IMG/VR virus record: IMGVR_UViG_3300045988_059683
Span: 1-6,031 of that record
DNA length: 6,031 bases
Source: a virus
Strand: one strand, 5' to 3'
The translations under genes and the position numbers were made by a program. This document shows, piece by piece, positions 1 through 6,031 of the stretch. Below the pieces are notes generated by a model. The model ran no database searches, was not told where the DNA came from, and was given only the letters and a program-made list of their open reading frames with translations. Position 1 is the stretch's first letter. Each line of letters starts with the position of its first letter.

Positions 1-77
1 TCGCTCTTGAAATAGCTGTTGCCCTTTTGGTTCTTATACCATTGTGCGTCCGGTGGCTTCAGTCCAAATACTATCGC
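1..77. repeat. Terminal direct repeat, copy 1 (circular-assembly overlap)
   Basis: TCGCTCTTGAAATAGCTGTTGCCC...AATACTATCGC is identical base for base to 5955-6031. Confidence 0.97.
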
Positions 78-506
78 ATGGTAGTGCGGTCGTTTTGTTC
101 TGTCGCCGTATTCAGCTGCTAGGAAATATTTTATTGGCTTCTTGTATGCTTTCCGTAGCCGCTTTAAAAATAGCTGTACGTCTCGTTTGCTTACTGTCTG
201 ACTTTGAATGCTCCTGTAGCCTTTAAGGATCTCGCCGTATGGTATGTGCTCATCGTCATATGTCAGCGTTAGAAAAATTACATCGTCCCATTCTTTGGCT
301 TCTAGCTCTATTCTGGTTGCCCATTGGTCAGCCATCTGTTTTCTGCAATATTCGCACTTACCGCATGGTAACAATGCGAATTTTCCTTTTTTTATTCCGT
401 CCATGATGTTCGTTTGTAGTCCTTGCTTGGATAGGTTCTCCAGACTTCCCCATAGTTGCGGTTTTTTCGTGTCCATCTGAAATACTAATGGTTTTGTACA
501 TGGCAT
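1..506 (-). CDS. VP4: Replication initiation protein (HUH rolling-circle endonuclease, microvirus VP4 / phiX174 A-like), N-terminal part. The ORF runs off the window start and continues at 5954.
   Basis: It is missing from the ORF track because it has no in-window stop. Hand translation from ATG 506-504 gives MPCTKPLVFQMDTKKPQLWGSLENLSKQGLQTNIMDGIKKGKFALLPCGKCEYCRKQMADQWATRIELEAKEWDDVIFLTLTYDDEHIPYG...YFLAAEYGDRTKRPHYHAIVFGLKPPDAQWYKNQKGNSYFKS. It shows a CxxCxxC cluster, motif 1 (FLTLTY) and the HUH motif (HYH = 78-86). The frame joins 5954 exactly (..FKS-E-WLQKIWGKGMIDF..). Confidence 0.92.
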   Translation of the reverse strand, partial: MPCTKPLVFQMDTKKPQLWGSLENLSKQGLQTNIMDGIKKGKFALLPCGKCEYCRKQMADQWATRIELEAKEWDDVIFLTLTYDDEHIPYGEILKGYRSIQSQTVSKRDVQLFLKRLRKAYKKPIKYFLAAEYGDRTKRPHYHAIVFGLKPPDAQWYKNQKGNSYFKS

Positions 507-513
507 TTTTGTT

Positions 514-548
514 ACCGGCACAAGCTTCCTTGTCTATCTTGTGCCGGT
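514..548 (-). promoter_or_regulatory. Perfect 11-bp stem / 13-nt loop hairpin 7 nt upstream of the rep start codon
   Basis: ACCGGCACAAG (514-524) pairs with CTTGTGCCGGT (538-548). On the coding strand this reads ...ACCGGCACAAG-ATAGACAAGGAAG-CTTGTGCCGGT-AACAAAA-ATG. The only SD-like string (AAGGAAG) is in the loop. Confidence 0.6.
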
Positions 549-572
549 TGACACCTCGCTTTCTTTATTGTT

Positions 573-590
573 GTAGTAGTAGTAGTAGTA
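573..590. repeat. (GTA)6 trinucleotide microsatellite, which is (TAC)6 on the coding strand
   Basis: There are six perfect tandem GTA units, flanked by TTG TTG and GTG. The tract is noncoding and lies between the rep-proximal hairpin and the 10-mer array. Confidence 0.95.
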
Positions 591-591
591 G

Positions 592-772
592 TGTTGAAAG
601 TGTTGAAAACTCGTTTTTTTAACGTTACTACGTTTATTTATTGCCTTTTTCTATGTTGAAAACTTTGTTGAAAACTTGTTGAATTGTTGAATGTTCGTCA
701 TTTTGACGAATTTCTTTGTGCAACTTTATGTTGAAAACCTGTTGAAAGTGTTGAAAACTCAAGTTTTCCACA
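592..772. repeat. Iteron-like array: nine direct copies of TGTTGAAA(AC), one inverted DnaA-box-like copy and a central hairpin
   Basis: TGTTGAAAAC occurs at 601-610, 654-663, 666-675, 729-738 and 749-758. TGTTGAAAG occurs at 592-600 and 740-748. TGTTGAAT occurs at 677-684 and 685-692. An exact 21-mer is duplicated at 592-612 and 740-760. A hairpin TTCGTCA/TGACGAA lies at 694-710. An inverted TTTTCCACA lies at 764-772. Confidence 0.9.
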
Positions 773-800
773 TTCTTTATTTTCTGGATTATTGTTTCTT

Positions 801-835
801 TGCGCGTGTGTGCACGTTTCGTGCGCGCGCGCGTA
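801..835. repeat. Alternating purine-pyrimidine inverted repeat (imperfect 15-bp hairpin; Z-DNA-prone tracts)
   Basis: TGCGCGTGTGTGCACG (801-816) and GTGCGCGCGCGCGTATA (821-837) each alternate Pu/Py strictly. Positions 801-815 pair with 821-835 using four G-T pairs, with loop GTTTC. Confidence 0.7.
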
Positions 836-897
836 TAGTGATAATAGACTGTTTGTCTTACTACAGCGGCAGCCCCCGCGTAGGGGGGCGTGACGCA

Positions 898-928
898 AGG
901 GGGGCCGCAAACTAATTGCGGCCCCCCT
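898..928. other. Perfect 13-bp G/C-rich stem-loop in the noncoding region downstream of VP2
   Basis: AGGGGGGCCGCAA (898-910), loop ACTAA, TTGCGGCCCCCCT (916-928). A second G/C hairpin GCCCCC/GGGGGC lies at 872-889, and a 9-bp hairpin with one mismatch lies at 966-989. No U-tract follows on the coding strand. Confidence 0.8.
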
Positions 929-1009
929 CTTCTATACATGATTGTGTTTTGGTTGCCGCTTGTCTGGTGTCCCCTGTGTTGGGGAAACCTTAGCTTTGCG
1001 CGGAAAGAG

Positions 1010-1882
1010 TCAGTCTCCTTTGTATGGTTCTCCAGATTTGAATCCATCTATTAGTTTGCGTCTTCTTGCTGTTTTGTTGATAGTATCTTCGGCTACTTTG
1101 TCAACGCCTTCTTTTGCTGCTTTGCCAGCTTTTTTTACTGCGTCTTTTGCTTTTTTTCCTGCTTTCGCAAGGCCTGAACCTAATTTGTTAGCTGTATAGG
1201 CGTACTGTTGCGCTTGTTTTGCGCTTGATGTTGCCATTTCGCTTGCCGCTTGTTCCCAGCTTTTTGCACTCTTAAACTGTTTTGCGCTGGTGCTCTCTTT
1301 TGCCAGCTGTAAGTATCTGTCTGCTAGCTCTGCCGTGTTGTTGCCGTATTCGTACATCGCTGATACGCTTGCGGCCTGTGCGCTCTGCTGGTTATAACGT
1401 TGGCTTCCAATGCTTGCAGATGCTCCTGATGTTGCGCTTGTTGCCCCGTTGGTCGCTGCTAGAATAGGATTGATGCCCGCTGCGATCATGTCCTTCACGG
1501 TGTCTTGATAGGCCGTTCCGCGCATTTCCTTCTCAAATGCTCTTTCTGCTGCTGCTTCTGCGCTGTTGTACTTTTTGGCGCTTGCTTGGCTTCCAGCGTT
1601 CGCGAGGTTGCTCAGTAGTCCGCTCATCATTTGTAGCGCGTTTGCGGTGTTTACACTGCTCTGGTTGCCAAATGTGGCAATACCTGTTGGTGTGCTGATT
1701 TGCGTTGAACCTATCTGCTGTGGTGCTGTAATACTGCCTGTTGTGGTCTCGTTGCCTTTGCTGCTCTCGCTGCCGGCTCCTTGGCTGTCTTTGGCGCTGC
1801 TCTGGTTGCTGTTCGTTATGATACCTGTTAACATGCTTAGTCCTTGCATGAGGTACGGCATAAAGCTTAATAACGTTTCCAT
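1010..1882 (-). CDS. VP2: Minor capsid / DNA pilot protein (microvirus VP2, phiX174 H-like)
   Basis: This 290-aa ORF lies directly after VP1. It has a hydrophobic N-terminus and is Ser/Ala/Gln/Gly-rich. Its conserved core AERAFEKEMRGTAYQDTVKDMIAAGINPILAA is the typical VP2 signature, and it has a Lys/Ala-rich C-terminus. Confidence 0.88.
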   Translation of the reverse strand: METLLSFMPYLMQGLSMLTGIITNSNQSSAKDSQGAGSESSKGNETTTGSITAPQQIGSTQISTPTGIATFGNQSSVNTANALQMMSGLLSNLANAGSQASAKKYNSAEAAAERAFEKEMRGTAYQDTVKDMIAAGINPILAATNGATSATSGASASIGSQRYNQQSAQAASVSAMYEYGNNTAELADRYLQLAKESTSAKQFKSAKSWEQAASEMATSSAKQAQQYAYTANKLGSGLAKAGKKAKDAVKKAGKAAKEGVDKVAEDTINKTARRRKLIDGFKSGEPYKGD

Positions 1883-1884
1883 TC

Positions 1885-1910
1885 AAAAATAGCCCCGCTT
1901 TTGCGGGGCT
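1885..1910 (-). terminator. Intrinsic-terminator-like hairpin between VP1 and VP2
   Basis: The coding strand reads AGCCCCGC-AAAA-GCGGGGCT-ATTTTTGA, followed at once by the VP2 ATG (1882). The stem is 8 bp and G/C-rich (1891-1898 / 1903-1910), the loop is 4 nt, and the T5 run is at 1885-1889. Confidence 0.7.
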
Positions 1911-1920
1911 TCCTCCTTTT

Positions 1921-3585
1921 TTAGATTCTTTCGATGCCGGGAATGCTGTAGATAGGCATCTCGCGATACCAGTCTTCCGTGAAGTAGAAGTCACACAAGA
2001 ACTGGTGGCTTACGTTGCTCGTTACTGCAATCGTTCGGTCAATGTTCTGTTGCCCTTCTTGTATCCACTCTGCCGAGAGACGCGGCAGAGCGTCATAATC
2101 GTCCGCATAGTGCCAGGCGTCCAAGCTCGTCTGGTGGTTAGAACGCATTTCGCCGGTTATGTAAGAAGGTTTATAGCGGTAATCTGCCCATGCTTCTTGA
2201 TAGCCGAAGATTTCATTGTCTTCATCCGTGCCCTGTGCATAGATTTCGCGGTTATATACTGGCTGTTCTCCCAGTGCTGCCAAACGCGGGTCGTAGTAGG
2301 TGAATCGCCCGCCACGTGTCCACTTGGTCGCAAGTCCCTGTTGGTAACTGTGCTCCACTCGTACTACTGCCAGACCGATGATATAGCCGTACTCAGTCGC
2401 CGCATAGTCCACCATCTGTTTGCTACATGTGGTCAGACTGTATGCCGCCGTGTTGCCCAGTGCCTGTCCGGTTGTCGTGTCCGTCTGGCTTGTCTGAACG
2501 ACCTGATTGACATTGATTGCAATACGCTGGCCGCCGATGTATTCAGGAATCTGAAGCCGGCTGTCCGGGCTTGTTACACCCCACGTACCAGACAGGAACT
2601 CGCGGTACCTCGTGCCGTTGCGTGCATCTGCTTCAAAGATGTGCTGCAAGGCGATTGCCATGCGCAAGTCCTGAATGCTTACTCCGGTTACGGCGCTAAG
2701 GTTTGCGCCTAGATATGCCACATCTCCTACATGTTTGGTTTCGCTCGAGCTTCCTGTTACTTGCGAAATTTTTTCTCCCGATTGGTTGTTGGTAATTCCT
2801 GGTATGTAACTGTCTATAGCTTCTTGGTTGAAGTAGATTGCTTGTTTTCCGCCTGCTGTCCCGTATTCTGTTAGTTCTTTGTTTTTGTACATTCCTACCG
2901 GCGCATTGCCTGTCATGCTGATTTCCACAGGATCAGACTTTAACGGAAATGGGAGACAGGATGTGAAGTAGTCGTGGAATTTTCCGGCCTTTGCCGGTTT
3001 CATTCCGTATAGTGCCCCTTCGTTCATGTTCGTTGTTTTTTCCGGGTCGTTGGCGCTATATTGGATGTCTACCGTTCCATTGCCCGCCGGCACTCCGCCA
3101 TCGTCGGTTTTTTTATAGCCTAGCATTAACGGTGCTTCTATATTTTCATCTCTGAACCATTCGTTGTAGATCATCGCGTAGGCGCGTGCCGGCAGTGCGT
3201 TTACTTTGATTGTTTTGTTTATGTTCGTAGGCAGTCCGAAATAATCGCCGATGCTTCCGTTTTGGATTCCCTTATCTACTCCAAATTCGCAAGTCGGCGT
3301 GCTGTATTCGGTTTTTTCTTCCCAGTAGTCGGTATCGTTCTCGCCGAACATATTTTCCCAGTGGTTCCACAGCAGACGGCACGGAACAAAAAAGAAATAG
3401 GTATCCATGTAGCAGTTATCCATGACCGGATAGATGGGCGTACTCATACGAATAAGCCCGTTCAGGCGTACCCGTGCGGTATCACCCGGTAGTACTTCAT
3501 CGCAGTAGATTGGCACTAAGTCGCCCTCGTTAATGGTCGTTAAGAGCTGGTGACTCCGGTCAAACTTGCTGCGTGGTCGTTCCAT
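1921..3585 (-). CDS. VP1: Major capsid protein (microvirus VP1 / phiX174 F family)
   Basis: This is the largest ORF. The N-terminal RSKFDRSHQLLTTINEGDLVPIYCDEVLPGDT is the conserved microvirus capsid signature. I prefer the ATG at 3585; the ORF track starts at a GTG at 3594, three codons upstream. Neither start has an SD. The stop is TAA at 1921-1923. Confidence 0.95.
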   Translation of the reverse strand: MERPRSKFDRSHQLLTTINEGDLVPIYCDEVLPGDTARVRLNGLIRMSTPIYPVMDNCYMDTYFFFVPCRLLWNHWENMFGENDTDYWEEKTEYSTPTCEFGVDKGIQNGSIGDYFGLPTNINKTIKVNALPARAYAMIYNEWFRDENIEAPLMLGYKKTDDGGVPAGNGTVDIQYSANDPEKTTNMNEGALYGMKPAKAGKFHDYFTSCLPFPLKSDPVEISMTGNAPVGMYKNKELTEYGTAGGKQAIYFNQEAIDSYIPGITNNQSGEKISQVTGSSSETKHVGDVAYLGANLSAVTGVSIQDLRMAIALQHIFEADARNGTRYREFLSGTWGVTSPDSRLQIPEYIGGQRIAINVNQVVQTSQTDTTTGQALGNTAAYSLTTCSKQMVDYAATEYGYIIGLAVVRVEHSYQQGLATKWTRGGRFTYYDPRLAALGEQPVYNREIYAQGTDEDNEIFGYQEAWADYRYKPSYITGEMRSNHQTSLDAWHYADDYDALPRLSAEWIQEGQQNIDRTIAVTSNVSHQFLCDFYFTEDWYREMPIYSIPGIERI

Positions 3586-3610
3586 TCGCGGCACTTGCGC
3601 GAAATGGTTC

Positions 3611-4027
3611 TCACTGTTTCTGTTCGTTTTCCTTCACTTCTTCCTTCTTCTCTTCTTCTTTCGGCTTTGGCTGTTCGGTCTGTTTCAGCTGTTCCAGCAT
3701 TTCGGCTGCAGCTTCTGCTTTTTCGTGCATCGTCATGATATCCTTCGGCAGATTTTCGAGGTCTGTATCTTCGGTGTATACTACGCTCTTAGCCTTGATG
3801 CTGGTGTCTCCAGCTTCCAGCCGCGCGATTGCGCTTGCAAGGTCGTAGCCCTCGCCCGCTTTCTGGATTTTCTCGTATGTGTTTTCGTTCGGCTGCTTGA
3901 TGTAGTCGGTTGTGCCGTTCGGTCGTTTGACCGCTTTCCACGTTGGCGCGGTCTCGCTGCCCGGATTGTTTGTTACTCTCTTGGTTGGCACACCGTAGTA
4001 CTTTACCATCACATCAGGATTTAACAT
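3611..4027 (-). CDS. Putative internal scaffolding protein (VP3-like), 138 aa
   Basis: The ORF lies immediately upstream of VP1. A strong SD (GAAGGAG) lies 7 nt before ATG 4027. The protein is hydrophilic with an acidic/lysine-rich tail (EQPKPKEEEKKEEVKENEQKQ). The functional call rests on position and composition only. Confidence 0.5.
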   Translation of the reverse strand: MLNPDVMVKYYGVPTKRVTNNPGSETAPTWKAVKRPNGTTDYIKQPNENTYEKIQKAGEGYDLASAIARLEAGDTSIKAKSVVYTEDTDLENLPKDIMTMHEKAEAAAEMLEQLKQTEQPKPKEEEKKEEVKENEQKQ

Positions 4028-4268
4028 TGTCCGTCTCCTTCAGGTCGATGAGCCGCACGATGTGCTCGGGCATCGCTTCGCTCATGTAGCCCGTTTCGGT
4101 GTCGAACTCGCCCAGTTCTACGAGCGAAATATCTTCGATTTCACTCGGTTTGCTTTCGTTGGCCTTCCATCGTGCCGTTCTTACCGCCTGTGCCCTGTTG
4201 TTCTGCAGAAACGGCTGTGAATAACCGTTGGTCAATGCATCGTGGAATGAATAGAATTTCAGTTTCAT
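4014..4268 (-). CDS. Small nonstructural protein, 84 aa (possibly gokushovirus VP5/ORF5-like); function unknown
   Basis: An SD (AAGGAAA) lies 7 nt before ATG 4268. The ORF overlaps the next gene by 14 nt. The pattern F..D....GYSQPF...N...A.R.......P.....L..LGEFD.ETG resembles a small protein I recall from many gokushovirus-like genomes. This was not verifiable here. Confidence 0.6.
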   Translation of the reverse strand: MKLKFYSFHDALTNGYSQPFLQNNRAQAVRTARWKANESKPSEIEDISLVELGEFDTETGYMSEAMPEHIVRLIDLKETDNVKS

Positions 4269-4279
4269 GTTTTTTTCCT

Positions 4280-4390
4280 TTACTCTTTGTTCGCATCCTT
4301 CAGTGCGTGGTAAATTTCATCGAGCTTTTCAAGGATTTTCATCATCAGCGCAATTGCTTCCTTAACGTCCTTGATTTTGATTAATGCCAT
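4280..4390 (-). CDS. Hypothetical 36-aa amphipathic helical peptide
   Basis: It is below the ORF-track length cutoff. Hand translation gives MALIKIKDVKEAIALMMKILEKLDEIYHALKDANKE. A strong SD precedes it (AAGAGGTGG-CTTA-ATG), and its TAA stop is embedded in the SD of the next gene (TAAAGGAA). Confidence 0.5.
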   Translation of the reverse strand: MALIKIKDVKEAIALMMKILEKLDEIYHALKDANKE

Positions 4391-4421
4391 TAAGCCACCT
4401 CTTTTCTTTGGTTTGTGTCGC

Positions 4422-4538
4422 TTACAGCCGGATACCGCCTCGCGATACCTTCGGTCTTACGTTGATGTTTTTTACCTTCTTTGCAGTCTGGGTAAAGTGT
4501 TTCTGGTCTCCTCGACCCGCTCCGCTTCTGTGCGCCAT
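4422..4538 (-). CDS. Small highly basic DNA-binding/packaging peptide (phiX174 J / gokushovirus VP8-like), 38 aa
   Basis: It is below the ORF-track cutoff. Hand translation gives MAHRSGAGRGDQKHFTQTAKKVKNINVRPKVSRGGIRL, with 10 K/R and one acidic residue. The C-terminal RGGIRL is, as I recall, typical of microvirus basic peptides. A consensus SD (AAGGAG) lies 8 nt before ATG 4538. Confidence 0.7.
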   Translation of the reverse strand: MAHRSGAGRGDQKHFTQTAKKVKNINVRPKVSRGGIRL

Positions 4539-4550
4539 TAGTTTACTCCT

Positions 4551-4616
4551 TTATTTGTTTTTTCTGTTTTTTACAATTTGCTTTTTGGTCTGGTCTCGTA
4601 CATTCCATGATTTCAT
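4551..4616 (-). CDS. Possible 21-aa basic micro-ORF (or 29 aa if started at ATG 4640)
   Basis: Hand translation gives MKSWNVRDQTKKQIVKNRKNK. An SD-like AAGGAAAA lies 6 nt before ATG 4616. The TAA stop is embedded in the SD of the J-like gene (TAAAGGAG). It is very short, so this is a weak call. Confidence 0.25.
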   Translation of the reverse strand: MKSWNVRDQTKKQIVKNRKNK

Positions 4617-4681
4617 TGCTGATTTTCCTTTCCAGGTCATGGCGTCATTTGATTACCGCTTGATTTTGATACGTTCCATTG

Positions 4682-5074
4682 TTACATCCCCTTTCTGTAT
4701 TTTTTTCCGGTTCGTACATCAAAGTGTACCCAAGTGTTGTGTACGATAATGCCGCATTCATCTGGGACGATTTCATTCAGTTTGTTGGCAAGTTCTTTTG
4801 CGCTCATTCCATCGACTCGGATATCTGCTGCCATACCGCGCATGTGGTAGCTGTATTTTGCTCCGTTGTATTTTTTGTTCCACTCTGGTGTTCTGTATCC
4901 GCTGGTGATAATGACTGGTTTCCCTAGTTTATGTCGGAGGATGTCCAGAATGTTATACAAGTAGTCATCTATGAATACTATCGGACTTCCGTCTTTACAT
5001 GCAAATTCTTTTACTTTGAAGTGTCTTGCAAGTTGTACGTTTCCGTCTGTGTTCATGATATAGCTTTTAAGCAT
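4682..5074 (-). CDS. Zinc D-Ala-D-Ala carboxypeptidase-type peptidoglycan hydrolase (peptidase M15A / Peptidase_M15_3-like), 130 aa
   Basis: The M15 pattern reads HFKVKEFACKDGS...LGKPVIITSGYRTPEWNKKYNGAKYSYHMRGMAADIRV...NTWVHFDV, with the putative Zn ligands His (SYH), Asp (AAD) and His (VHFD). I start it at ATG 5074, which has AAGGAG 11 nt upstream overlapping the stop of the previous ORF. The track start at 5101 is a TTG with no SD. Confidence 0.88.
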   Translation of the reverse strand: MLKSYIMNTDGNVQLARHFKVKEFACKDGSPIVFIDDYLYNILDILRHKLGKPVIITSGYRTPEWNKKYNGAKYSYHMRGMAADIRVDGMSAKELANKLNEIVPDECGIIVHNTWVHFDVRTGKKYRKGM

Positions 5075-5090
5075 TTTTGTCAATTCTCCT

Positions 5091-5261
5091 TTAAAGCTCA
5101 AATGTTTGGTCTATTCTGTAAAGTGTTACTTTTATTACGTTTGCTTCTGCTCTACATTTTTTCGCTTTTTCTTTTGCGTCTCTGGTTGTTTCTATCCACA
5201 TCCTTTGTTCTTTTGTACCGTTTTGGAAATGCACTCTTACTAAGAATTTGTACTCTTTCAT
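5091..5261 (-). CDS. Hypothetical 56-aa protein, first gene behind the promoter and translationally coupled to the M15 peptidase
   Basis: It is below the ORF-track cutoff. Hand translation gives MKEYKFLVRVHFQNGTKEQRMWIETTRDAKEKAKKCRAEANVIKVTLYRIDQTFEL. An SD (AGAGAGG) lies 8 nt before ATG 5261. The TAA stop (5091-5093) lies inside the M15 SD (TAAAGGAG). There is no hydrophobic segment. Confidence 0.6.
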   Translation of the reverse strand: MKEYKFLVRVHFQNGTKEQRMWIETTRDAKEKAKKCRAEANVIKVTLYRIDQTFEL

Positions 5262-5291
5262 GGTGCTTACCTCTCTTTCTTTTCTGACTCT

Positions 5292-5308
5292 ATTATATCA
5301 TATGTCAA
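5292..5308 (-). promoter_or_regulatory. Extended -10 sigma70-type promoter (TGaTATAAT) reading toward ORF56 and the M15 peptidase
   Basis: The coding strand reads CCTATTGACATATGATATAATAGAGTCAG. A perfect TATAAT lies at 5297-5292 and is preceded by TGa. The hexamer at the 17-nt spacing is only CGGAAA (3/6). A perfect TTGACA (5308-5303) sits only 5 nt upstream, so it cannot serve as the -35. Confidence 0.6.
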
Positions 5309-5333
5309 TAGGTTTTTCCGTGATTTTGCTGCT

Positions 5334-5365
5334 TTGTAATAAAATTGTAACCTTTTCTTGTAACC
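5334..5365 (-). promoter_or_regulatory. Three direct repeats GGTTACAA / GGTTACAA / TATTACAA (coding strand) upstream of the promoter
   Basis: The plus strand shows TTGTAACC at 5345-5352 and 5358-5365, and TTGTAATA at 5334-5341. The copies start 11 and 13 nt apart and lie about 35-70 nt upstream of the -10 hexamer. Confidence 0.4.
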
Positions 5366-5464
5366 CGGTTTTGCTCCTTTGTTTTGAAAGCGCTTTAGCG
5401 CCTTGCCGTATGGAGCGCAGCGGAATTCGGCTAAATAAAATCTTCCTTTTTAGCGCTGTGCGCG

Positions 5465-6031
5465 TCATGCTTTTGGTTCACGCCACTTTTGTCTTAGCTT
5501 GTCTTTTTCTTTCTGAATGTTGAGATAGGTTTCGTAATCCACGTTCGTGTTCTGTTCGAGATTGACTAAACTTTGTATTGCGTTGCGTCTACGTTTGGCT
5601 CTAACCTCTCTCAGCTCGTCAGAATGTGCCTTAAAATAGCTTTCTGTGTCTTGGCTGGTATCCTTATCCTTATCTAGTATCTTATCAAAATAGCGTGGAG
5701 GCCTTTTCTCGCGGCCTCCTGCGCATATGATGCTATCTGTTTTTAAGATTTCGTCTTTGTGTTCGTTTAGATACTTTTCGCCGATTCCTTTTGACATGAT
5801 TCGGAACTCTGGTTCTCGACCTTCCATCCAGTATTTAGCCGCTTGCTCTGCGCCTATGGCTTTTTTGTTGACGTACTGTGCTACGTATGCGTAGCTTCCC
5901 GGCTGTGCTGGTGAAAAGTCTATCATGCCCTTGCCCCAGATTTTTTGTAGCCATTCGCTCTTGAAATAGCTGTTGCCCTTTTGGTTCTTATACCATTGTG
6001 CGTCCGGTGGCTTCAGTCCAAATACTATCGC
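5465..6031 (-). CDS. VP4: Replication initiation protein VP4, C-terminal part (5955-6031 duplicates 1-77). The full gene is 996 nt / 331 aa on the circle.
   Basis: The track ORF 5465-5926 is open upstream to the window end in the same frame. It carries the catalytic double-tyrosine motif YVAQYVNKK (Y at 5885-5887 and 5873-5875), which has the same Y-x3-Y spacing as phiX174 protein A. The stop is TGA at 5465-5467. Confidence 0.92.
   Translation of the reverse strand, partial: AIVFGLKPPDAQWYKNQKGNSYFKSEWLQKIWGKGMIDFSPAQPGSYAYVAQYVNKKAIGAEQAAKYWMEGREPEFRIMSKGIGEKYLNEHKDEILKTDSIICAGGREKRPPRYFDKILDKDKDTSQDTESYFKAHSDELREVRAKRRRNAIQSLVNLEQNTNVDYETYLNIQKEKDKLRQKWREPKA
5955..6031. repeat. Terminal direct repeat, copy 2 (circular-assembly overlap)
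   Basis: Identical to 1-77. It lies inside the rep coding sequence, so it is an assembly or permutation overlap, not a biological terminal repeat. Confidence 0.97.

Follow-up and report, generated by a model that had tools for sequence, protein, structure and literature searches.

The basal unwinding system of Bacillus subtilis, composed of the incC DnaA-boxes 6 and 7, a GC spacer, DnaA-trios and AT-rich DNA, was reportedly described by Richardson et al. in 2016, with a further paper in 2019 (PMC6669920). In such unwinding modules a proximal DnaA box is followed by a GC-rich spacer of 4-5 bp, the trios and AT-rich DNA, with DnaA binding the 3'-GAT-5' strand and the strand of the boxes hence reading 5'-CTA-3'; the proximal boxes are orientation-dependent, and distal boxes act with helical phasing (PMC8235120; PMC6669920). 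Here we analyze IMG/VR virus record IMGVR_UViG_3300045988_059683, positions 1 to 6,031 (this whole stretch of 6,031 nucleotides is referred to as the window), a gokushovirus genome in which the non-coding gap upstream of the VP4 (Rep) gene holds an array of short direct repeats. The array probably comprises ten DnaA sites in the variant used by Oscillospirales, and the conserved cassette that contains it would imitate the host origin on the phage genome and be opened by DnaA.

Shared between the cassette and the basal unwinding system are two abutting boxes of the same orientation, a short spacer, five to six CTA triplets and AT-rich DNA, as well as further boxes upstream at helically phased distances. 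On the other hand, the putative phage module measures about 214 nt in a 6-kb single-stranded DNA (ssDNA) phage and is not located beside dnaA or dnaN; in the clade of the window it is without the GC spacer and 1 nt off register, and the AT-rich part of the window is about 15 nt long.

Mobile replicons offer a second comparison. Plasmid and phage origins such as those of pSC101, F, RK2 and P1 (oriR) contain host DnaA boxes beside the gene of their own initiator, one to five of them next to Rep iterons in double-stranded theta replicons, and we know of no DnaA-trio array described in these origins. The cassette is likewise predicted to let a mobile replicon recruit host DnaA via boxes near its own initiator gene, but the phage has no separate iterons, and its initiator is a rolling-circle HUH nuclease. 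DnaA-titrating loci outside the origin, such as Escherichia coli datA and the DnaA-box clusters of B. subtilis, resemble the cassette as dense DnaA-box clusters outside the chromosome origin; to our knowledge they have no trios and AT-rich unwinding element. Finally, the phiX174 origin is 30 nt long and lies inside gene A, while the circular ssDNA viruses that encode Rep (CRESS-DNA viruses) use iterons and a nonanucleotide stem-loop. These origins are also found near the rep gene of a Rep-encoding ssDNA virus, yet they are recognized by the viral HUH protein in a strand-specific manner, whereas the cassette carries a host-protein motif on either strand.

The repeat array and its relatives in microviruses

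The array had been described in an earlier note on the window as nine direct copies of one unit, and this was reproduced: TGTTGAA occurs on the plus strand at 592, 601, 654, 666, 677, 685, 729, 740 and 749, and nowhere else in the genome on either strand, with about 0.7 copies expected for a 7-mer in 12 kb. Five copies extend to the 10-mer TGTTGAAAAC (601, 654, 666, 729 and 749), two read TGTTGAAAG (592 and 740) and two TGTTGAAT (677 and 685), and the duplication of an exact 21-mer at 592-612 and 740-760 was found as claimed. The genome-wide count proposed in the note gave 18 matches with at most one mismatch to TGTTGAAA, compared to a mean of 5.9 and a maximum of 14 in 200 shuffles. Missed there were six perfect TAG triplets (574-591), which directly adjoin the array, and the AT-rich DNA next to them (559-573), both parts of one conserved cassette.

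A distant blastn search with positions 560-780 retrieved 33 GenBank microvirus records at 68-97% identity, with 72-97% for the cassette; they were sampled from the faeces of humans, pigs, minks, raccoons, dogs and monkeys, and the matched region mostly lacks an annotated feature ('hypothetical protein' in 4). Exact matches to TTCAACAATTCAACAAG, a 17-mer of the central array, were obtained in at least 119 IMG/VR stretches, about 104 of which are microvirus genomes of 5-6 kb with the whole cassette. The motif is hence kept in the non-coding regions of relatives, the conservation that the note had wished to see checked, and it is so in many carriers whose VP1, VP2 and VP4 are 29-57% identical to those of the window. 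In the following, the alignment and box counts refer to 103 distinct cassettes, spacer and trio counts to 95, orientation to 99 genomes and phasing to 97.

On the coding (minus) strand the unit reads TTTTCAACA, and relatives have TTTTCCACA or TTATCCACA at the same positions; perfect DnaA boxes thus replace TTTTCAACA at homologous sites. Pooled over the ten positions, the 9-mers are TTTTCAACA (296), CTTTCAACA (194), AATTCAACA (104), TTTTCCACA (65) and TTATCCACA (19), with variation in position 6 (A in 82%, C in 13%) and the first three positions, the rest hardly varying. All forward boxes of the window are TTTTCAACA or CTTTCAACA with A at position 6, matching the variant of the putative host (gut Clostridia) and not the E. 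coli consensus (TTATCCACA). Only the inverted copy TTTTCCACA at 764-772 fits the relaxed consensus TTWTNCACA, in agreement with the note, and by chance alone a genome of this size should hold about 0.4 such matches. We also considered an array of Spo0A sites, the 0A-box having the consensus TGTCGAA with a CGAA core; this was excluded, as TTCGACA is absent among about 1,000 box instances and position 5 is never G.

The cassette runs on the coding strand from cluster A through a spacer to cluster B, and through another spacer to cluster C, the triplets and AT-rich DNA (Table 1). In general, cluster A has three to four boxes and is followed by a spacer of about 40 nt with an inverted repeat; cluster B has four boxes, and the roughly 45 nt between it and cluster C include a small inverted repeat; cluster C consists of two abutting boxes that lead, over zero or four spacer bases, into (CTA)5-6, CAACAAGT and AT-rich DNA. 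Cluster A contains four boxes in most relatives, the fourth being TTTTCCACA in 37 of 103, while the inverted copy of the window is restricted to its own clade (about 27 of 103 cassettes; absent from the relatives L003 and L004). Cluster B reads CATTCAACA-ATTCAACA-AG-TTTTCAACA-AAG-TTTTCAACA, its third position being TTATCCACA (19/103) or TTTTCCACA in relatives. The A-B spacer of other clades has a different inverted repeat (TGCACAAA...TTTGTGCA) at unchanged length, and in the B-C spacer the pairing is kept with other bases, L003 reading GCGTATCAACGC at this place.

In the alignment, conservation is 90-100% in the columns of the boxes and of the triplets, and (CTA)5-6 together with the bases directly after it form the most invariant part of the cassette. 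The two boxes of cluster C are adjacent, of the same orientation and point to the proposed unwinding site (609-592, TTTTCAACA-CTTTCAACA, then the trios), an arrangement shared with Bacillus TTATCCACAAATCCACA and with the Ruminococcus origin L467. Five to six CTA units are present in 93 of 95 cassettes, exceeding the minimum of three for a trio array and on the right strand, and they are almost invariably followed by CAACAAGT (87 of 95). Beyond the trios, the next 22 nt average 80% AT in the relatives, which read CAACAAGTTAATATATAA at the AT-rich stretch; the Ruminococcus origin L338 reads CTACTACTACaacaataaatatata. Some relatives have enlarged cassettes, with cluster A duplicated to a total of 12 boxes in L096, and cluster C duplicated together with the trios in L068.

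The position of the cassette relative to the genes is variable. In 37 of 99 genomes it lies upstream of VP4, in the VP2-VP4 gap and on the coding strand, as in the window; the others have it downstream of VP4, three on the coding strand and 59 on the opposite one, the opposite-strand placement being confirmed by the open reading frames (ORFs) of L109 and by the annotation of MG945694. The composition of the coding strand is equal in both orientation groups. The internal geometry is, in turn, rather strict: the anchor boxes of A and B are 63/64 nt (73/97) or 53 nt (18/97) apart and those of B and C 74 nt (91/97), equivalent to about 6, 5 and 7 helical turns, and these distances hold despite clade-specific spacer sequences. 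Helical phasing characterizes proteins assembled on duplex DNA, and inversion would not be tolerated by a signal that is read from the packaged single strand, be it a nick site, a hairpin for priming or a packaging signal. Thus, the two orientations and the helical phasing together suggest that the cassette acts on double-stranded DNA.

These observations bear on the two readings put forward in the earlier note. The first, that the repeats are iterons that, like those of CRESS-DNA viruses and iteron plasmids, place the HUH initiator VP4 beside its nick site, was not upheld and is in our estimate improbable. The cassette does always adjoin the VP4 gene, on one side or the other, but its boxes do not co-vary with the initiator, remaining constant at VP4 identities of 32-46%, and the motif matches origin boxes of bacteria without VP4. 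The core of the phiX174 origin is CAACTTG followed by AT-rich sequence, to which the nearly invariant CAACAAGT bears a loose resemblance; a nick site must however be on the packaged strand, here assumed to be the coding strand, and the cassette is inverted in 59 of 99 genomes with the same coding-strand composition in both groups. Moreover, a conserved nick-site loop is missing: the hairpin at 694-710, correctly noted as such (-6.7 kcal/mol, z = -3.8), has a loop of 3 nt, and other clades have an unrelated inverted repeat instead.

The second reading survived in part. Recruitment of DnaA is congruent with the box variant, which is that of gut Oscillospirales origins, whereas a complementary-strand origin, where a DnaA box in the stem of a hairpin (750-771) would recruit DnaA, DnaB and DnaC through the ABC primosome, is in our view very improbable. 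The clade of the window does possess an inverted pair, TGTGGAAAA-CTTGAG-TTTTCAACA, at the position given; yet this hairpin is no stabler than shuffled sequences (-5.0 kcal/mol, z = -1.7; 12 of 200 shuffles fold equally well), and the inverted copy is lacking in about three of four cassettes, L003 and L004 among them. The other nine boxes are all of one orientation and thus cannot pair together on a single strand, and the helically phased cassette is found on either strand relative to the genes.

Counterparts in bacterial chromosome origins

The origin of Bacillus spizizenii reads TTATCCACAAATCCACA-AGCC-CTACTATTACTTCTACTA-TTTTTTTAAAAATATATA (AT-rich), followed by dnaN, and phage L109 reads TTTTCAACTTTTCCACA-GCCT-CTACTACTACTACTA (that is, (CTA)5)-CAACAAGTTAATATTATA. 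The two agree in order, strand and 4-nt spacer, and these fit the published definition of the module. When 185,579 species genomes were scanned for TTTTCMACA-N4-CTACTACTAC, at least 120 loci were listed, with about 9 expected by chance, and 100 of the at least 120 listed have the end of dnaA about 200 nt upstream and/or the start of dnaN 70-300 nt downstream. The strand and order of the trios relative to the boxes are the same in the Bacillus origin and these 100 flanked origins. Among the matches listed, 21 genuine origins have A at position 6, and 17 of them belong to gut or rumen Clostridia (metagenome-assembled genomes (MAGs) of Ruminococcus, Acutalibacteraceae, Christensenella, Eubacteriales and Lachnospiraceae). 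Locus L230, which came from a search of genome contigs with the cassette 17-mer, looked origin-like but is not beside dnaA.

A longer match is provided by cluster B. Its 27-base string CAACAAGTTTTCAACAA(N)TCTTTCAACA was recovered in six bacterial contigs from five MAGs of Oscillospirales-type Clostridia (two contigs stem from one MAG), far above chance expectation, which is far below one. Five of the six contigs contain dnaA and four dnaN, and in three the match is situated between both genes. The dnaA-dnaN spacers are densely populated with forward TTCAACA, with 15 copies in 412 nt of Ruminococcus sp. UBA5884 (L467), and 18 in 460 nt and 16 in 1,021 nt of two Oscillospiraceae (L466 and L468, respectively), as compared to two to three in each of the other 6-7.6 kb of these loci; the canonical box is seen zero to one time in the spacers of L467 and L466. 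As judged from these counts, TTTTCAACA is the predicted main DnaA box of Ruminococcus, Oscillospiraceae and Acutalibacteraceae origins, a by-product of the analysis.

The three origins also share the 9, 11 and 12-nt box spacings of the phage, and the end of L467 reads GTTTTCAACACTTTCAACA (19 bases)-CCCC-(CTA)5, a match to cluster C of the window apart from the spacer. Considering the gut Oscillospirales MAG origins that were compared (L467, L466, L468, Acutalibacteraceae L464 and uncultured Clostridia L447 and L465), common elements are the box TTTTCAACA or CTTTCAACA, these spacings, CAACAAGTTTTCAACAA(A)TCTTTCAACA and GTTTTCAACACTTTCAACA before the trios. The bacterial origins are however larger (400-1,000 nt), have 15-18 or more boxes in forward and several in inverted orientation, and align to the phage in patches, blastn yielding local identities of 25-41 nt at the unwinding module. 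A recent capture from a host origin was consequently rejected, and the patchiness is better explained by mimicry or an old capture.

Local identity to bacterial origins over 27-41 nt could also be left by a passenger, i.e. a captured piece of host origin that is functionless or serves homologous integration at the host origin. We find this barely credible, as boxes, trios and phasing are kept in more than 100 genomes with proteins at 29-57% identity, and such upkeep despite protein divergence argues for selection; in addition, the likeness to any single bacterial origin is patchy, and there is no integrated copy among the matches listed in genome contigs. Since the box variant mimics that of Oscillospirales, these are the likely hosts.

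The DNA-reading helix of DnaA was inspected for a counterpart of the position-6 A, and reads GGRDHSTIVYA in TTTTCAACA-using Oscillospirales and GGRDHTTVIHA in Bacillus. A change in DnaA domain IV as the cause of the variant was nevertheless rejected, as the same Tyr is present in cyanobacteria that use TTTTCCACA, leaving no clean correlation with the box variant.

Proposed opening of the replicative form

The combination of phased box clusters, trios and an AT-rich stretch therefore suggests that the cassette is a compact copy of the unwinding module of the host origin. In the mechanism we propose, ATP-DnaA would fill the boxes on the double-stranded replicative form, and the trio-proximal box pair would guide a DnaA filament onto the TAG strand. 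The duplex would then open at 559-591, which lies upstream of the VP4 start by about 50 nt, and replication of the replicative form would begin either by loading of the host helicase as at oriC, or by exposure of ssDNA for the HUH nuclease VP4. Helicase loading would mean theta-type replication of the replicative form, and perhaps a carrier state. A strand-specific version, where DnaA on the TAG strand exposes the CTA/CAACAAGT strand for nicking by VP4, was not kept as a general model, since 59 of 99 genomes have the cassette inverted and both groups are alike in coding-strand composition; it may hold if the phages with inverted cassettes package the antisense strand.

Binding of host DnaA may, alternatively, not start phage replication at all, which we judge unlikely. 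As a sponge, the many copies of the replicative form, with ten boxes each, would draw DnaA off the host origin and block new host rounds, and as a sensor, the occupancy by DnaA would tie VP4 expression to the growth state of the host. Either version draws on the same DnaA-box evidence as the origin mimic, and the independence of orientation and position is in line with pure binding. A sponge, though, has no need for strand-correct trios or an AT-rich stretch, yet (CTA)5-6 and the next bases are the most invariant, and clusters phased so strictly with the helix are more indicative of one ordered complex than of sites that act independently. The placement directly upstream of VP4 in the arrangement of the window speaks for this reading; no sigma-70-type promoter was detected on the coding strand in 450-1100, which speaks against it.

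Several observations weigh against an origin mimic opened by DnaA, beginning with the window itself. Alone among 95 cassettes it is without the 9-nt GTTAATATA after CAACAA, leaving a shorter AT-rich part, a loss that could be a real variant or an assembly error. The GC-rich spacer of 4-5 bp is absent from the clade of the window (26 of 95 cassettes), where the box runs straight into six CTA; most other cassettes have a 4-nt spacer (CTCC, CCCC, GCCT, TACT and similar) and then five CTA. The missing spacer places the trios 1 nt off register relative to other cassettes and bacterial origins, and trio register matters in B. subtilis. In Helicobacter pylori, on the other hand, unwinding still occurred with the spacer replaced by a trio (PMC8235120). 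Furthermore, the A at position 6 of every forward box of the window departs from the relaxed E. coli consensus, so that the unit would be a lineage-specific DnaA-box variant, with binding inferred from its position in origins. The likely hosts, Oscillospirales, are likewise derived only from the mimicry, and a prophage and host search of genome contigs with the cassette 17-mer gave chance hits and simple repeats, with no integrated microvirus among the matches listed. The module was also not found in the three cultured gokushoviruses phiMH2K, Chp2 and SpV4; the subfamily as a whole hence does not need it. Finally, sequence alone cannot tell origin function from DnaA titration or regulation.

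A role as a general microvirus feature was similarly rejected, given the three cultured gokushoviruses and a scan of viral contigs with the canonical box, TTATCCACA-N4-CTACTACTAC, which produced 12 matches, none of them microvirus-sized.

Gokushoviruses are the dominant microviruses of animal guts and almost all are uncultured; we know of no mapped gokushovirus replication origin, and of no earlier ssDNA phage with the full box-trio-AT grammar of oriC. The literature, in full text and with incomplete coverage, contained nothing on DnaA boxes in connection with Microviridae, microviruses or gokushoviruses, and nothing that connects phage origins with DnaA-trios. The conserved host-origin-like DnaA module represents a concrete, testable candidate for the replication start of gokushoviruses. 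We tentatively propose that the host origin exists as a functional miniature in a large clade of gut gokushoviruses, and that through it the replicative form is opened by host DnaA, which possibly also loads the host helicase. If true, rolling-circle phages would start or maintain replication as DnaA-dependent mini-chromosomes, from which a plasmid-like carrier state may follow, and the box variant of the cassette would both limit and reveal the host range, here Oscillospirales. Matching the box variant to bacterial origins would then offer a new handle for host prediction, and there is a hint that phages may disturb host initiation by soaking up DnaA.

Genome layout and neighboring features

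The window represents a circular gokushovirus genome of 5,954 nt with a terminal redundancy of 77 nt, and all recognizable genes are carried by the minus strand (Table 1). The closest GenBank records, MT121961 and KX513876 (about 87% identity), are gokushoviruses of the human gut. In the window and in 99 related genomes, the coding strand is rich in A (36%) and poor in T (17-18%); the viral strand of phiX174 is T-rich, the opposite. The peptidase M15 gene, presumably encoding a cell-wall lysis enzyme, is 81-87% identical at the nucleotide level to those of otherwise distant pig and human microviruses.

Table 1. Elements of the cassette and recognized genes, with positions in the window.
Feature	Position	Strand	Remarks
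Whole conserved non-coding cassette	559-772 (~214 nt)	minus	blastn, IMG/VR matches, alignment
Inverted tenth copy, TTTTCCACA	764-772	plus	Takes the place of the first box of cluster A
Cluster A, three boxes	729-757 (757-749, 748-740, 737-729)	minus	
7-bp inverted repeat, TTCGTCA-TTT-TGACGAA	694-710		A-B spacer
Cluster B, four boxes	654-693 (693-685, 685-677, 674-666, 662-654)	minus	
Small inverted repeat, AACGT-TACT-ACGTT	621-634		B-C spacer; -3.8 kcal/mol, z = -2.9
Cluster C, two abutting boxes, TTTTCAACA and CTTTCAACA	592-609 (609-601, 600-592)	minus	Directly before the trios
DnaA-trio array, six perfect TAG	574-591	plus	CTA on the coding strand
AT-rich stretch, CAACAATAAAGAAAG	559-573	minus	11/15 A or T
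VP4/Rep	From 506 through the circle junction to 5465	minus	PF23343
VP2	1882-1010	minus	
VP1	3594-1921	minus	Phage_F, E = 2e-148
VP3 and VP5		minus	Also recognized among the genes
Peptidase M15	5101-4682	minus	PF08291, E = 1e-22

The non-coding gap that contains the array extends from the VP2 stop (1010) to the VP4 ATG (506) and measures 503 nt, as the earlier note had it. Translation of the ORF at 634-1047, which the note had named as a possible objection, was examined and the ORF rejected as a gene, the homologous frame being broken by stops in five relatives (L048, L102, L068, L025 and L050) and a Pfam hit lacking. A promoter or terminator reading of the gap was rejected as well, as the coding strand has no sigma-70 match in 450-1100, the hits being on the non-coding strand only and at shuffle level. 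Comparison to known RNA families returned nothing close to any gathering score. In the relative L004 (MG945447), where the cassette is located after VP4, a near-consensus promoter (TTGACA, 17 nt including TG, TATAAT) is present downstream of the cassette at about 1560-1590.

Within 506-557, a perfect 11-bp hairpin (514-524/538-548) separates a Shine-Dalgarno-like GAGGTG (552-557, minus strand) from the VP4 ATG. It folds at -14 kcal/mol (z = -6.2) and is kept in L003 through two compensatory pair changes, and may bring the ribosome site near the VP4 start codon, or regulate VP4 translation. On the other side of the cassette, two alternating purine-pyrimidine tracts, GCGCGTGTGTGCACG and GTGCGCGCGCGCGTATA, are found at 806-840, where Z-DNA is possible; akin CG/TG tracts adjoin the cassette in most relatives, on either side. 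Twin GC-rich hairpins follow past the VP2 stop at 865-928, including a 13-bp perfect stem at 898-928 (-28 kcal/mol, z = -5.7), which could be a transcription stop or a single-strand priming signal; the equivalent region of L001 and L002 has a short terminator-like hairpin only. Chp2 (L462), in turn, contains two tandem copies of TGTGCAAAA in the VP3-ORF8 spacer (2818-2842), 12 nt apart and followed by phased A-tracts. The reverse complement of this unit, TTTTGCACA, fits TTWTNCACA, and may represent a different DnaA-related element.

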